Shown piece by piece: positions 25,141-30,140 of a stretch of 64,000 nucleotides of DNA (positions within the stretch are counted from its first letter, which is position 1; each line of letters begins with the position of its first letter). The position numbers were made by a program, and so were the translations under genes. The stretch is from an uncultured Clostridia bacterium. GTDB taxonomy: Bacteria > Bacillota > Clostridia > TANB77 > CAG-508. The notes beneath the pieces were generated by a model. It was not told where the DNA came from and did no database searches. It saw nothing but the letters and a program-made list of their open reading frames with translations. Location of the stretch: the NCBI GenBank assembly GCA_944392545.1, contig CALXWW010000001.1:153210-217209 (forward strand), given 5' to 3'.

Positions 25141-26930
25141 TTAGATACATTATTATATTTTATTTTTTATTATAAAATATTAATTATCATTTCTGTTTTT
25201 ATTTAATAATTATTTTAATTATTATTTTATTGCTTTATTTTTTTATAATTTTTTATTTATATTTATTTTTAATAAATATATTTTATTAATTATTTATTTT
25301 TATTCTAATAATTTAATTTTTATTTGAATTAATATATTATTTTGATTATTTTCTTATTTATTTTTGATTTGTTTTTTATAATTTATTTCTTTTTTTCTCT
25401 TTTATTTTTTTCTCATTATATCATATTATTTAAATTATTAATTTTTTATTTATTCGGTTTTATCTTCTATCCACTTTTTTATTCTACTTTGCTTTGATTT
25501 GTGTTAATATATCATTTGTCTTTTTGTTAATATTTTATCTTTCTCATCATTTTAAGCAGAGATTCTTTCTCTTTTATTTTTATTACTCAAAAATGTTTCC
25601 TTTATTTTTCATTTTATGTTCACTTACTATTTGTATTTTATATCTTTTTACTTCTTTGCTATTCCGTTAGTTTTTTCTTTTATTTTTTTCATTTTTCTTT
25701 AGATTCTACTTTATTAATTAGTTTACATATATTTATTTTTTATATACTTGTTTTTAGATACATTATTTCGTTTTTACTCCTTACTATTTTTATTTTTCCT
25801 TTTTGACAATTTGTAGGTTTTGCTTATTCTCCACTAGTATTCCTTTTGCTTTGTTTTTTATTTAAGATCTTTACAATTTTAATCATAATTATATTCTTAA
25901 ATTTTATATTTATTTCTTATTATTTTTTAATTCAGTTTTTATTTGTATTTTTAATTTTATTATTTATTATAAAATATTAATTATTATTTTTGTTTTATTT
26001 AATAATTATTTTGATTATTATTTTGTATTAATTATTTTATTAATTTATTTTTTATATTATTTATTTTTATTTTTAATAAATATATTTTATTAATTATTTT
26101 TTATTTATTTAAATTTTAATAAATTAATTTTTATAATAAATAATATCTATTTTATTTAATTTTTATTATATATATTAAATTTATTTTTTATAATTCTTTT
26201 ATTGTTCTTTAATTATTTAATAATATATATTATAGTTCTTAAATATTTAAGATTTTTGTATGTTTAACAATAAATTTTATTTTAACATTCTCTTTAAGTT
26301 TTATCAATATATTATTTGTCTTTTTGTTAATATGTTATTTTTTATGCTTCTCTTCACATGTTTCTTTGCTTTCTATTATTCTTAGTATCTTCTATTACAT
26401 TACCTTTTCTTTATCTTATGTCTACTATTTCTTTTTCTTTTTTATATTCTCGCTTATTCACTATTCCGTTGCCGATTTTCTTATCTATATTCACTTTTTC
26501 TTAGCATTTTTGTTTAAGTAATAGTTTACATATATTTATCTAGCTTATTGCTTTTTTCTATCCTCTTTCTTATTATTTTTGTTTTCATATTTTTCATTCT
26601 CCTTTTTGACAATTTCATCATATTCTATGTATCTGTTTTTCGCTCTCTTATTTTCCATTTTTCTTTACAGTTTTTACAGTTTTTACCATTAATTATATTA
26701 CTTATTCTCATATTTATTTTTATTATTTTATTTAATTTTATTGTATATTTTATTTATTATTTAAATAAATTTATGTATTTTAATTTTATTTTTATATTTT
26801 TAATTGTTTATTTTTATATTCTTAATTATTTATTTTTATAAATAATTTTTATTTTGTATATTATTAATAAAACTTGTATTTTTTTTATTTTCACGATATA
26901 ATAATCATTGTTAATAATATAAGGAGGTAT
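25141..26930. repeat. AT-extreme tandem array 1: about 2.2 copies of an ~800-bp non-coding unit, T-rich on the + strand
   Basis: A partial tail copy at 25141-25421, a full copy from 25422 (catattatttaaatt...) and a diverged third copy from about 26290. Landmark motifs such as atattatttgtctttttgttaatat and ttttaagcagagat recur about 800 bp apart. The same unit reappears at 28700-30140. Confidence 0.85.
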
Positions 26931-26933
26931 ATT

Positions 26934-27488
26934 ATGCTACTTGCTTTAGCAGGAGTTACTGGAGTTGGTAAATCTTATTTCAAAGATCTGCTAGTAAAAA
27001 AATTAAATTTTGAAAAAATAAAAATAATTACTACTCGACAAATAAGACCAGGAGAAAAAAATAATGAAGATAAAATTTTTGTTTCTCCTGAAGAATTACA
27101 AAATTTTAAAAATTCAGATATAATTGCTTATGATTTTAATATGCTTGGTAATATATATGCATATTTAAAGGATGATTTATTTTCAGAAAAAAATACTGTT
27201 TTTGAACTTCACTACTCAACAATTTTCGATTTAAAAAAGATTTGTCCAAATATGGTCGCAGTTTATATTTTTCCTGAAAATTTAGAAATGGCTAAGGAAG
27301 AAACAAGAAAAAGACATCTCGATTCTGAAGTTGAAAAAAATAGGTTGTTAGAAATAGATGAACACTATTACAAAATACTTTCTGATGAACATTTAAGAAA
27401 TCAATTTGATTATTTTATATCTAATAGCTATAACCAAAAATCAGAAAATGAAATATTAGAATTAGTAAAAAAAATATTAAATAAATAG
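26934..27488 (+). CDS. Guanylate-kinase-like P-loop nucleoside monophosphate kinase
   Basis: P-loop LALAGVTGVGKS, then ITTRQIRPGE, which matches the guanylate kinase TTR-PR-GE motif. AAGGAGG RBS before the ATG at 26934. Confidence 0.6.
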   Translation: MLLALAGVTGVGKSYFKDLLVKKLNFEKIKIITTRQIRPGEKNNEDKIFVSPEELQNFKNSDIIAYDFNMLGNIYAYLKDDLFSEKNTVFELHYSTIFDLKKICPNMVAVYIFPENLEMAKEETRKRHLDSEVEKNRLLEIDEHYYKILSDEHLRNQFDYFISNSYNQKSENEILELVKKILNK

Positions 27489-27499
27489 GAGAATATAAT

Positions 27500-28333
27500 A
27501 TGTCAAAAGATTATTTTTCACTAGATGAAGATTTTTCAAATATCATAAAAAAATCTTTATCTGCTAAAGAAATTATTAATATAAAACCAATCTCTACAGG
27601 TTGGACCAATATAGTATTTGAAGTAACAACTACTTGTGGAAATTATTTTTTTAGATTTCCTAGAGATAATTTTTGGATTAGAACAATTGTTAAAGATTAT
27701 GAATTTTCTAAGTTTATTAACGGAAAAACTGATTTTAATACTGTAAAATTAGAATTACAATATGATAATGGGAGACCATATAGCATACATAAGAAAATAG
27801 AAGGAACAGTATTAGCAGATGTAATGAATAGCTTATCTCCTCAACAAATAAAGACTGTTGCTAAAGATATTTCAAATTTTATGTACCAATTACACAACAT
27901 AAAATTTGATTATAATGAAATTTTTGATATAACAAATATAGGACTTAATTTAACCGATTTTTTAAATGAATTATTAGACCTACATGTTTCACAAAAAGAT
28001 AAAGTCTTTTGGAAATATGAAGAATTTAAAAATAAAGAACATGATACACTAGTTCATGGAGACTTAAACTCAAGTAATATATTACTTGATGAAAATTATC
28101 ATGTTACCGCAATTATTGACTTTGGCTTTGGTGGATTTGGAAATCCATATTTTGATATATCTCGTATTATTGGTAGATGTCCTTCTTCTTTCAAGAATGA
28201 AATTATTGATAGTTATGAAGAACTATCAAATAAAAATTTAGATTATGCTACTTTAAATAAGGAAATTAAAGTTTGGGAAAACATAGATAATTCATATATT
28301 AATTATATGAAAAAAATAGGAATATATAAATAA
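27500..28333 (+). CDS. APH/choline-kinase family phosphotransferase
   Basis: Catalytic loop HGDLNSSNILLDE and IDFGFGGFGNPYFDISR, typical of aminoglycoside/small-molecule phosphotransferases. Confidence 0.75.
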   Translation: MSKDYFSLDEDFSNIIKKSLSAKEIINIKPISTGWTNIVFEVTTTCGNYFFRFPRDNFWIRTIVKDYEFSKFINGKTDFNTVKLELQYDNGRPYSIHKKIEGTVLADVMNSLSPQQIKTVAKDISNFMYQLHNIKFDYNEIFDITNIGLNLTDFLNELLDLHVSQKDKVFWKYEEFKNKEHDTLVHGDLNSSNILLDENYHVTAIIDFGFGGFGNPYFDISRIIGRCPSSFKNEIIDSYEELSNKNLDYATLNKEIKVWENIDNSYINYMKKIGIYK

Positions 28334-28365
28334 AGCTAATACTAAAAAGTATTAGCTTTATTTAT
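28332..28365. terminator. Bidirectional hairpin between the APH-like gene and the tRNA-Ser genes
   Basis: aaagctaatact aaaa agtattagcttt, then tttatttat. Confidence 0.5.
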
Positions 28366-28366
28366 T

Positions 28367-28457
28367 TGGCGGAAGCGAGAGGATTTGAACCTCCGCGGCC
28401 CTTACGAACCCTAGCAGTTTAGCAAACTGCCCCCTTCAACCACTTGGGTACGCCTCC
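28367..28457 (-). tRNA. tRNA-Ser (anticodon GCT)
   Basis: Reverse complement GGAGGCGTACCCAAGTGGTTGAAGGGGGCAGTTTGCTAAACTGC..., long variable arm, T-arm GGAGGTTCAAATCCTCT, CCA. Confidence 0.85.
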
Positions 28458-28502
28458 ATATAATAAAAGTTAGAAAATTCAATTATCTAACTTTTAAATA
28501 TT

Positions 28503-28594
28503 TGGCGGAGAGGGTGGGATTCGAACCCACGGTAGGCTACAAACCTACGCCAATTTTCAAGACTGGTGCCATAAACCAACTCGACCACCTCTCC
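28503..28594 (-). tRNA. tRNA-Ser (anticodon TGA)
   Basis: Reverse complement GGAGAGGTGGTCGAGTTGGTTTATGGCACCAGTCTTGAAAATTGG..., T-arm GTGGGTTCGAATCCCAC, CCA. Confidence 0.85.
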
Positions 28595-28624
28595 GTGTTA
28601 ATTCTACCAATCACGGTAACAGTA

Positions 28625-28670
28625 TATATATTAACATATTTAGCCTTTAGTTGTCAATAGTAATTTTAGG
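28625..28670 (-). promoter_or_regulatory. Candidate sigma-A promoter for the tRNA-Ser pair
   Basis: On the minus strand: TTGACA, a 17-nt spacer, then TTAATAT, about 30 nt before the tRNA-Ser(TGA) 5' end. Confidence 0.4.
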
Positions 28671-28699
28671 AAATTTTATATTAATATACTTAAAACTAT

Positions 28700-30140
28700 T
28701 TTATAAAAAATAAGAAGTAAAATATTGTCATATATATATATTATTTTTTGATTTATAAAATAATTTTAATTGTATTTTTTAATTTATTATTTATTTTTTT
28801 AATAAATATATTTTATTAATTTTTATTTATTAATTTTAATTTATTAATTTTATTATTTATTTAATTTTTATTTAATATTTATTTAAATTAATATATTATT
28901 TTTTCATTTATTTTTTTATTGTTTAATATTTTATCTATATTAAATATTTTGTATTTATTATTTTATTTATTATTTTATTTAATTCTGATTTAGTTTTTAT
29001 AATTTATCTCTTTTTTCTATTTTATTTTTTCTCTCTATATCATATTATTTAAATTCTTAATTTTATATTTATTTAGTTTTATCTTCTATTCACTTTTTTG
29101 TTCTACTTTGTTTTGATTTGCCTCGATATATTATTTGTCTTTTTGTTAATATGTTATCTTTCTCATCATTTTAAGCAGAGATCTTTTTTTCTTTTATTTT
29201 TATTACTCATAAATATTTCCTTTATCTTTTATTTTATGTTTACTTTTGCTTTGTTTTTTATATCTTTTTACTTTTTTGCTATTCCGCTAGTTTTTTTCTT
29301 TTATTTTTTTCATTTTTCTTTAGATTCTACTTTATTAATTAGTTTACATATATTTATTTTTTATATACTTATTTTTATATACTTTCTTTTGTTTTTACTT
29401 TTTACTATTTTTGGTTTTCCTTTTTGACAATTTATAAGTTTTTGTTTATTCTCCATTAGTAGTCCTTTTCCCTTGTTTTTTATTTAAGATCTTTACAATT
29501 TTAATCATAATTATATTCTTAAATTTTATATTTACTTCTTATTATTTTTTAATTCAGTTTTTATTTGTGTTTTAATTTTATTATTTATTATAAAATATTA
29601 ATTATTATTTCTGTTTTTATTTAATAATTATTTTAATTATTATTTTATATTAATTATTTTATTAATTTATTTTTTAATATTTTTTATTTATTATTTATAT
29701 TTATTTTTAATAAATATATTTTATTAATTATTTTTTATTTATTTTACTTTTAATAAATTAATTTTTTATAATAAATAATATCTATTTTATTTAATTTTTA
29801 TTATATATATATTAAATTTATTTTTTATAATTCTTTGTTAATATTTTTTATTAATATTTGTTATATTACATCAATCTATTATTTTTAAATAAACTATTTA
29901 TTATATATTTATTAATTATTTTTTATTACTTCTCATTTATTTTCGTTCTTTATTTTTTGTTTTTAAGCTTTTAAATTTTATTTAAATATATCTTTATATT
30001 TAATACTATAAATGAGCTTAAAATTACTTTAAATTAATTTTATTTTATTACTAATAATAATTATTAAAATTGTTATAAAAAAATAAGTATTTAATTTATT
30101 TAAATACTTATTTTTTATCATCTGATAATCAATACAATAT
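28700..30140. repeat. AT-extreme tandem array 2: second copy set of the ~800-bp unit
   Basis: A full unit from 29041 (catattatttaaattcttaattttat...) is near-identical to 25422-26220. A partial copy precedes it (28730-29040) and a degenerate tail follows to about 30140. It is in direct orientation relative to array 1, about 3.6 kb away. Confidence 0.85.

Follow-up and report, generated by a model that had tools for sequence, protein, structure and literature searches.

A stretch of 64,000 nucleotides (the window) from contig CALXWW010000001.1 of an uncultured Clostridia bacterium contains two arrays of a large, AT-rich, tandemly repeated unit, here termed array A (25078-26933) and array B (28700-30143). 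Together with a cassette that lies between them and consists of a guanylate-kinase-like gene, an APH-family kinase gene and two tRNA-Ser genes, the arrays occupy the interval between the gene for a DUF4446 protein and a gene for a 1442-aa BcrAD/BadFG-DUF2229 protein, 9-14 kb from the origin of replication. The genome is very AT-rich (~25% GC) and oriC is located inside the window, with clusters of DnaA boxes at 39430-39450, 40951-41116 and 42323-42354 and a switch in the sign of the GC skew near 39-40 kb. To the left of the origin, the minus strand carries yidC, jag, trmE, gidA, gidB, parA, parB and the DUF4446 gene, the last of which ends the parA-parB-DUF4446 operon.

Array A comprises about 2.2 head-to-tail units in the order spacer A0, core A1, spacer A1, core A2 and spacer A2, and array B consists of one full unit preceded by a partial one and followed by a degenerate one (spacer B0, core B1, spacer B1 and a degenerate tail). 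The unit is bipartite, with a core of ~480 bp that is T/C-rich on the + strand (18-24% GC) and a spacer of 250-350 bp that is almost pure A+T and built of degenerate short repeats. In a BLAST comparison against the window, the unit at 25375-26200 is 90.9% identical over 844 nt to 28996-29836 and 67.5% identical over 770 nt to 26178-26922, and 25122-25388 is 78% identical to the 3′ AT-rich part of the same unit. Repeat finding and MAFFT agree with these matches, and the similarity between units far exceeds that attributable to low complexity. An earlier note, made from the letters of this DNA, had proposed that the same ~800-bp unit makes up both arrays, in the copy numbers given above, and that its third copy (A2) is much more diverged; both points are borne out by the alignments, which likewise establish homology of the arrays beyond low-complexity AT matches, and all the landmark sequences that it quoted are present. 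Its statement that A1 and B1 match almost base for base is a slight overstatement, since 59 of the 845 columns of their pairwise MAFFT alignment are mismatches and 23 contain gaps.

The gene-free stretches at the arrays measure 1856 and 1549 bp, compared with 165-739 bp for the other intergenic stretches of the window, and have the lowest GC content among them (11-13%). The + strand is T-rich, as had been remarked before (AT skew -0.34 to -0.39), but the sign of this asymmetry is not distinctive, the arrays being of the same sign as, and ~1.5-2 times stronger than, other intergenic regions of the replichore (0.02 to -0.26). The array structure was recovered independently in many samples by different assemblers and is therefore not an assembly artefact. 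Each array is placed between a terminator and the following promoter. Strong intrinsic terminators, that of the 1442-aa gene (25088-25137) and that of the parA-parB-DUF4446 operon (30074-30116), precede arrays A and B respectively and probably insulate them, so that read-through transcription of the arrays is probably absent. Array B, which had been said to abut the spo0J-soj (parB-parA) operon, is separated from parB by the DUF4446 gene and this terminator.

Comparison of strains, for which loci on the contigs of other assemblies (designated by L-numbers) were retrieved by exact-protein look-ups, reveals how the arrays change; the matching contigs are gut-style metagenome assemblies. Array A occurs as three length alleles. 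That of 1857 bp is found in the window, L006 and L022; that of ~1375 bp (L002, L003, L005 and L008) lacks core A1 owing to a 482-bp deletion, the endpoints of which are 12-bp direct repeats (TTTGTTTTTTAT) at 25372-25383 and 25854-25865; and that of 1010 bp (L001 and L004) has lost one whole unit through a crossover within the homologous spacers A0 and A1. The stretch 26701-26933 is identical in all strains compared. Over 5.2 kb, L022 and the window differ at 17 positions, all of them within 25750-25850, where each of the 16 substitutions is to the B1 base and the single indel matches an extra base of B1; this segment is a gene-conversion tract of ~100 bp with B1 as the donor and A1 as the recipient. 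The arrays thus evolve by unequal crossover, by deletion at microhomologies and by gene conversion from one array to the other, and the suspicion that such arrays recombine was correct. Between strains, identity at the 4-fold sites of the flanking genes is 99.5-100%, whereas that of the arrays is 96.7-97.9%, with indels in addition; the rate of change in the arrays is therefore at least tenfold that of silent sites in the flanking genes.

The locus was traced in related species through homologues of DUF4446. Identity to the window at 4-fold sites is 80% for L031, 56% for L041, 54% for L034 and 48% for L037, silent sites being saturated among the more distant of these species (48-56%). L031 has a 2.55-kb gene-free gap containing one core 70% identical to B1 and a second, more diverged core, and the sequence just downstream of its DUF4446 gene is 77% identical to 29831-30143. 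In L034 and L035, stretches of 7.1 and 6.2 kb are free of called genes; they contain 7.2 and 6.2 copies, respectively, of a tandem unit of 877-890 bp (repeat periods, above 500, were taken from self-BLAST), and so differ by one copy; the units of L034 show a mean mutual identity of 85%, cannot be aligned with those of the window, and belong to an array that is, on the parB strand, 63% A, 19% T, 13% G and 4.5% C. In L041, AT-rich gene-free stretches of ~1.0 and ~1.3 kb flank the cassette on both sides, and in L037 and L043 the AT-rich stretch follows the tRNA pair instead of preceding it; in these three the units are degenerate or a single motif type (see below) is left. Copy number at the locus accordingly ranges across related species from degenerate single units to ~7 units. 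Unit-wide homology beyond the sister species was sought with nhmmer profiles and none was significant, the best match (E = 0.24) being in the expected place and on the expected strand; such an absence is as expected for neutral DNA at this divergence. The identity of the element across species therefore rests on locus, orientation, architecture, period and two short motifs. What the species have in common at this locus is a long, A-rich element free of genes; copy number, exact position and nearly all of the sequence are not conserved.

A practical consequence is visible in the assemblies themselves. Short-read contigs from several species (L039, L040, L043, L044 and L072-L076) end 70-1400 bp past DUF4446, and the AT-rich arrays therefore appear to break the contigs of metagenome-assembled genomes (MAGs) systematically beside the origin.

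Against this background of rapid drift, two 13-nt boxes are retained, M1′ (TTTGTCTTTTTGT) and M4′ (CCTTTTTGACAAT; both on the + strand of the window), each of which is exact in A1, A2 and B1. The rest of the 64 kb contains neither, apart from chance matches with one mismatch. M1′ is conserved in L031, L034, L035 and L041, and M4′ in L031, L037 and L043; L041 has a site related to M4′. The two boxes have the same orientation and a spacing of 283-286 bp in both the window and L031, and an equivalent pair of sites, 291-292 bp apart, is found in every unit of L034 and L035. The shared core reads, on the A-rich strand, [T/A]CAAAAAG[G/A]. When compared with dinucleotide shuffles, five 12-mers are common to 4-5 of the six species (0.2 expected) and one 11-mer is common to five (0.0 expected). 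The -10-like flanks of the motifs are not conserved and their reading frame differs among copies, which argues for a role at the level of DNA, most simply protein binding; the two boxes would then be under selection as putative binding sites for a DNA-binding protein. Set against the sites for Spo0A, CodY, CtsR, PhoP, WalR, TnrA, dif/XerD, RTP-Ter and the SpoIIIE SRS, the motifs gave partial matches only; the resemblances of TGTCAAA to the 0A box (TGTCGAA) and of ATATGTAAACT to the XerD arm of B. subtilis were rejected, being neither convincing nor conserved. Scans of JGI metagenomes and IMG/VR with the M1′-gap-M4′ pattern returned an unrelated CRISPR (clustered regularly interspaced short palindromic repeats) repeat containing TTTGTCTTTTTGAC and a few sequences of ~32-35% GC, and a scan of a genome collection with the 20-mer ATTTGTCTTTTTGTTAATAT returned 10 single chance matches in unrelated taxa. 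Five JGI contigs (L045, L054, L058, L059 and L061) carry CRISPR arrays of ~35% GC with the repeat GTTTCAATCCTTGTTATGATGGATTTGTCTTTTTGAC, in which the match to M1′ is coincidental.

That the unit derives from a protein-coding gene, for example a repetitive Lys/Glu/Asn-rich one read from the A-rich strand and preserved intact elsewhere, is very improbable. The A-rich strand does share the orientation and purine bias of the coding strands of this replichore, and coding sequence of ~13% GC exists in the genome (48677-50005), but no open reading frame (ORF) above 37 aa (that is, of ≥38 aa) is present on the A-rich strand of the arrays, and gene callers leave the 6-7 kb of the seven-unit relative empty. 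The + strand ORFs are strings of Phe, Leu and Ile whose frame and extent vary among A1, B1 and A2; A1 and B1 are separated by single-base indels that are not multiples of 3, 3-base periodicity is absent from the units, no array ORF has a Pfam match at E ≤ 1, and no gene replaces the arrays in relatives down to 75% DUF4446 identity. The units are thus non-coding, as had been surmised. A 164-codon open frame on the T-rich strand of the seven-unit array was considered and dismissed as a by-product of T-richness: it is open in only three of 13 distinct L034-type units and broken in the other ten, and variable sites in these units number 47, 40 and 32 at codon positions 1, 2 and 3.

The TTGACA within CCTTTTTGACAAT raises a different prospect, in which it would act as a sigma-A -35 element driving either a U-rich unstructured RNA, which from array B would be antisense to DUF4446/parB, or a hydrophobic peptide of the type I toxin-antitoxin kind. 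A perfect TTGACA is conserved in five species, the combination TTGACA-16/17-TATTCT scores 10/12 in A1 and B1, and hydrophobic ORFs, such as one of 109 aa in B1, are present on the T-rich strand. Such a transcription unit is nevertheless improbable, because conservation of the -10 region does not extend to A2, L031, L043 or L037, and TTGACA is missing from the corresponding position of the L034 units. Promoter-like sites occur at the frequency of chance (57 found; 56.9 expected from shuffles), a terminator scan found none inside the arrays, and the T-rich strand of the units lacks Shine-Dalgarno-like sequence; no ORF is kept among A1, B1 and A2, no codon-position signal is apparent, and stops or frameshifts interrupt most L034 units. 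The several TTGACA-like motifs to which attention had been drawn reduce to exactly one conserved copy per core, and their reading as promoters fails on the same grounds. Searches against Rfam, both at the gathering threshold and at E ≤ 1, detected only tRNAs and two sub-threshold matches overlapping them; folding of a 381-nt stretch of core B1 (29100-29480) was no better than that of shuffled sequences on either strand (z = -1.4 and -0.7), and the units contain no meaningful inverted repeats or palindromes.

The earlier note had also proposed that the arrays are the direct-repeat ends of an island and mediate excision or amplification of the cassette between them. A1 and B1 are indeed direct repeats of 91% identity, lie 3.6 kb apart and exchange sequence. 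Recombination between them would, however, delete two tRNA-Ser genes, GCU and UGA, and no excised form was seen in any locus-spanning contig: among the 60-odd contigs read, many of them shared between look-ups, every one that spans the locus retains the cassette. Its synteny is, furthermore, retained in every relative studied (DUF4446 identity as low as 75%), including one (the L034 species) that lacks array A and has only 345 bp on that side, and no integrase is associated with the arrays. Given that no contig shows the loss of the cassette and that its place is unchanged in related species, the arrays do not mark the ends of an island, and this model is scarcely tenable. The true mobile element at the locus is a distinct 5.5-kb integrative element found in the tRNA-Ser(GCU) gene of L003 (10909-16468), L005 and L009, at a site corresponding to ~28408 of the window. 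This element has ends of its own, supplies a variant copy of tRNA-Ser(GCU), and encodes a tyrosine integrase, an HTH_17 excisionase-like protein, a REP_ORF2-G2P rolling-circle Rep, and SHOCT, HTH_26 and DUF6809 proteins; it carries neither M1′ nor M4′, and an origin of the arrays from it was rejected. In L037 (75% DUF4446 identity), the APH kinase gene looks truncated (184 aa) and a DUF6922/AbiEii-like toxin-antitoxin pair (9245-10191) is located between the tRNA-Ser pair and the AT-rich stretch. The promoter-like site directly upstream of the tRNA-Ser pair in the window (28628-28657) is, judged by its position only, their putative promoter.

Sites that are typical of the origin region are missing from the arrays. 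DnaA boxes (TTATCCACA-type, ≤1 mismatch) number 39 in the window and none between 25078 and 30143. The canonical 16-bp palindromic parS (TGTTNCACGTGAAACA) is not found at ≤3 mismatches anywhere in the 64 kb, parB included; the best near-match (12/16) is at 31566-31581, in the 3′ end of parA. Firmicutes usually carry parS inside parB. Curved DNA was ruled out as a simple signal since AA/TT dinucleotides show no 10-11-bp helical phasing, and a higher-order repeat with an internal sub-repeat of ~290 bp was unsupported (score 70; shuffles 62 ± 8). Derivation from a miniature inverted-repeat transposable element (MITE) or an insertion sequence was likewise rejected, as inverted repeats are absent and no terminal inverted repeats accompany the 12-bp repeats on either side of A1. 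An ORF look-up across assemblies gave copies of the unit at this locus only; further copies were sought over ~64 kb of this genome and ~20 kb per relative.

Table 1. Features of the array locus and its surroundings (window coordinates; aa, amino acids)
Feature	Position	Strand	Remarks
1442-aa BcrAD/BadFG-DUF2229 gene	20749-25077		upstream of array A
Intrinsic terminator of the 1442-aa gene	25088-25137	+	16-bp hairpin and U-run, -13.3 kcal/mol, z = -5.0
Spacer A0	25138-25379	.	almost pure A+T, cryptically simple; 78% identical to 3′ AT part of unit
Core A1	25380-25865	.	91% identical to B1
M1′ in A1	25515-25527	+	exact; 0.53 matches expected in window
M4′ in A1	25798-25810	+	283 bp from M1′
Spacer A1	25866-26230	.	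pure A+T
Core A2 (diverged copy)	26231-26700	.	67.5% identical to A1
M1′ and M4′ in A2	26315-26327 and 26601-26613		both exact, 286 bp apart
Spacer A2 with likely promoter and ribosome-binding site of guanylate-kinase-like gene	26701-26933	+	TTGTAT-17-TATAAT and AGGAGG read in the sequence
Guanylate-kinase-like gene	26934-27488	+	Pfam PF00625, 1.4e-11
APH-family kinase gene	27500-28333	+	Pfam PF01636, 2.7e-21
Hairpin terminator between kinase gene and convergent tRNA-Ser(GCU)	28332-28368	.	-13.4 kcal/mol, z = -5.6
tRNA-Ser(GCU)	28367-28457	-	ARAGORN, Rfam
tRNA-Ser(UGA)	28503-28594	-	ARAGORN, Rfam
Promoter-like site	28628-28657	-	TTGACA-18-TAATAT with TG; directly upstream of tRNA-Ser pair
Spacer B0	28700-28995	.	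pure A+T
Core B1	28996-29480	.	70% identical to orthologous L031 core
M1′ and M4′ in B1	29134-29146 and 29419-29431		
Spacer B1	29481-29830	.	pure A+T
Degenerate AT-rich tail of array B	29831-30073	.	
Intrinsic terminator of parA-parB-DUF4446 operon	30074-30116	-	17-bp hairpin and U-run, -13.1 kcal/mol, z = -6.4
DUF4446 gene	30144-30644	-	end of parA-parB-DUF4446 operon
rnpA	38703-39059	-	origin region
dnaA	39508-40848		followed by dnaN, recF, gyrB, gyrA

Several other features of the window are of separate interest. Four clustered DnaA boxes, two of them perfect (TTATCCACA), are found at 4088-4183 within the ORF at 3703-5274, ~35 kb from oriC, and may represent a DnaA-box cluster outside the origin. 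An insertion of ~5 kb (45773-50773), whose coding sequence is only ~13-22% GC, separates gyrB and gyrA; it encodes a TraG/VirB4-like P-loop ATPase (46811-48658), a ParA/MinD-like ATPase with a long Lys/Asn-rich N-terminus (48677-50005, ~13% GC) and two ORFs without a Pfam match, and may be the remnant of a conjugative or pilus-type element. The signal-recognition-particle RNA at 5320-5415 belongs to the small bacterial class (RF00169; 96 nt); that of Bacilli and Clostridia is usually of the large Alu-domain type.

The arrays can be compared with several known systems. Variable-number tandem repeat (VNTR) or minisatellite loci of bacteria, such as the mycobacterial interspersed repetitive units (MIRU) and VNTR-105/141 of Wolbachia, are intergenic and of strain-variable copy number. 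The arrays are similarly intergenic head-to-tail repeats whose copy number varies by slippage or unequal recombination, and they display the head-to-tail copies, the length polymorphism with recombination junctions and the conversion among copies by which VNTRs and macrosatellites are recognized; tandem repeats show enrichment in the intergenic space of prokaryotes (PMC12418385). They differ in the ~10 times longer unit (0.8-0.9 kb), with its bipartite construction of core and AT-only spacer, in their persistence at one locus across the genus while the sequence turns over, and in the presence of a second array 3.6 kb away. Alpha-satellite DNA with its CENP-B box is a eukaryotic satellite bearing a short conserved protein box. 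Both have AT-rich tandem units that undergo concerted evolution and gene conversion and diverge rapidly between species, and in both each otherwise drifting unit contains a short motif that is conserved. In their manner of evolution, with fast-drifting units and a short conserved box, the arrays most resemble eukaryotic satellite DNA. They are nevertheless bacterial and comprise 1-7 units rather than thousands, and the likeness is one of evolutionary pattern.

The long direct repeats (LDR) of E. coli, reportedly described by Kawano et al. in 2002 as the ldr/rdl type I toxin-antitoxin loci, also consist of tandem units of several hundred bp; the intergenic region that holds them appears to be free of genes, and there are additional copies close by. 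LDR units code for a conserved toxic peptide of 35 aa together with a cis-antisense RNA, whereas the arrays have no conserved ORF, promoter or RNA structure. Partition-site arrays beside par operons (chromosomal parS, sopC of F and the iterons of plasmid parC) are, like arrays A and B, repeated DNA; the latter lie beside a parA-parB operon close to the origin, but contain neither parS nor palindromes and have a unit 20-50 times larger. The oriC-proximal DnaA-box clusters of B. subtilis are intergenic and have been proposed to titrate a DNA-binding protein (PMC3245932). Both these and the present arrays are intergenic and origin-proximal; the latter, however, are devoid of DnaA boxes, which in the window cluster only at oriC and at 4088-4183. 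The defining features of MITEs, CRISPR arrays and structured RNAs are absent as well. No match to a described repeat family was found in Rfam, Pfam or the literature searched, in which no arrays of such a kind are described, in agreement with the earlier note; to our knowledge, large-unit non-coding tandem arrays that persist across a bacterial genus are essentially undescribed.

The interpretation that we favour, which has about an even chance of being right, is that the element is a genus- or lineage-specific, fast-evolving non-coding macrosatellite with short conserved boxes, serving at the DNA level as a binding platform of variable valency near the origin. The large-unit tandem repeat fills the gaps between terminators and promoters on either side of the tRNA-Ser/kinase cassette, next to parA-parB-DUF4446. 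Each unit of 0.8-0.9 kb consists of a slippage-prone spacer of 250-350 bp, nearly pure A+T, and a core of ~480-600 bp. On this interpretation, most of the unit would drift freely while selection held two boxes per core (TTTGTCTTTTTGT and CCTTTTTGACAAT) in the same orientation and 283-292 bp apart. The boxes would bind a DNA-binding protein, and the array would work as DNA, not as a gene or structured RNA. Array A may have been seeded secondarily from array-B units, as suggested by the 91% identity of A1 and B1, the absence of array A from the L034 species and the conversion from B to A.

Several observations weigh against this interpretation. The binding protein is hypothetical, the motifs match no regulator consensus known to us, and a simple curvature signal is lacking in the unphased AA/TT tracts. 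Homology of whole units between species is not demonstrable by nhmmer, and the degenerate units or single motif type of L041, L043 and L037 argue against a strict requirement for the pair. Copies elsewhere in the genomes are conceivable given the extent of the search, and hypervariability and loss of copies within a species are also expected of neutral DNA. The last of these leads to the main alternative, that of a neutral or selfish repeat without function, in which a duplicated intergenic fragment would be maintained by unequal crossover, conversion and slippage under AT pressure, and the short motifs would be leftovers or would be favoured by recombination or slippage itself. We regard this as possible though clearly less probable than the binding platform. 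Consistent with it are the change of the arrays at a rate at least ten times that of silent sites, the loss of units and cores within the species, spacers of 0-5% GC as at mutational equilibrium, the decay of units in the three relatives just named, and the absence of a promoter, RNA or coding signal from the units. It does not readily account for exact motifs of 11-13 nt with a fixed spacing, in excess of the shuffle expectation, in species whose silent sites are saturated, nor for cores that hold 18-24% GC, well above the spacers. Bacterial genomes are usually biased toward deletion, and kilobases of such DNA run counter to this; the genome is apparently small (a related contig with DUF4446 is 1.65 Mb), and yet 6-7 kb of array is kept in one species and 1-3 kb in others.

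The earlier note had further suggested a satellite-like structural element or a protein-spreading or silencing platform, which is compatible with the conserved motif pairs although a ParB site is absent. A more specific version of the binding platform, in which the arrays would form an origin-proximal satellite and the putative binder of the paired boxes would organise, anchor or segregate the origin, is in our view doubtful. It would apply to a lineage in which the 64 kb around oriC show no canonical parS, and the arrays would be functionally analogous to a centromeric satellite with its CENP-B box.

Kilobases of non-coding DNA are seldom retained in compact bacterial genomes, and the 6-7-kb gene-free array of the seven-unit relative is unusual in this respect. 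In practical terms, the arrays appear to break short-read assemblies beside parB and oriC in several species and thereby affect MAG contiguity. The locus is also a natural system in which comparisons of strains make unequal crossover, gene conversion and deletion at microhomologies directly visible. If the boxes bind protein, a new kind of element that organises the chromosome near the origin could come to light.

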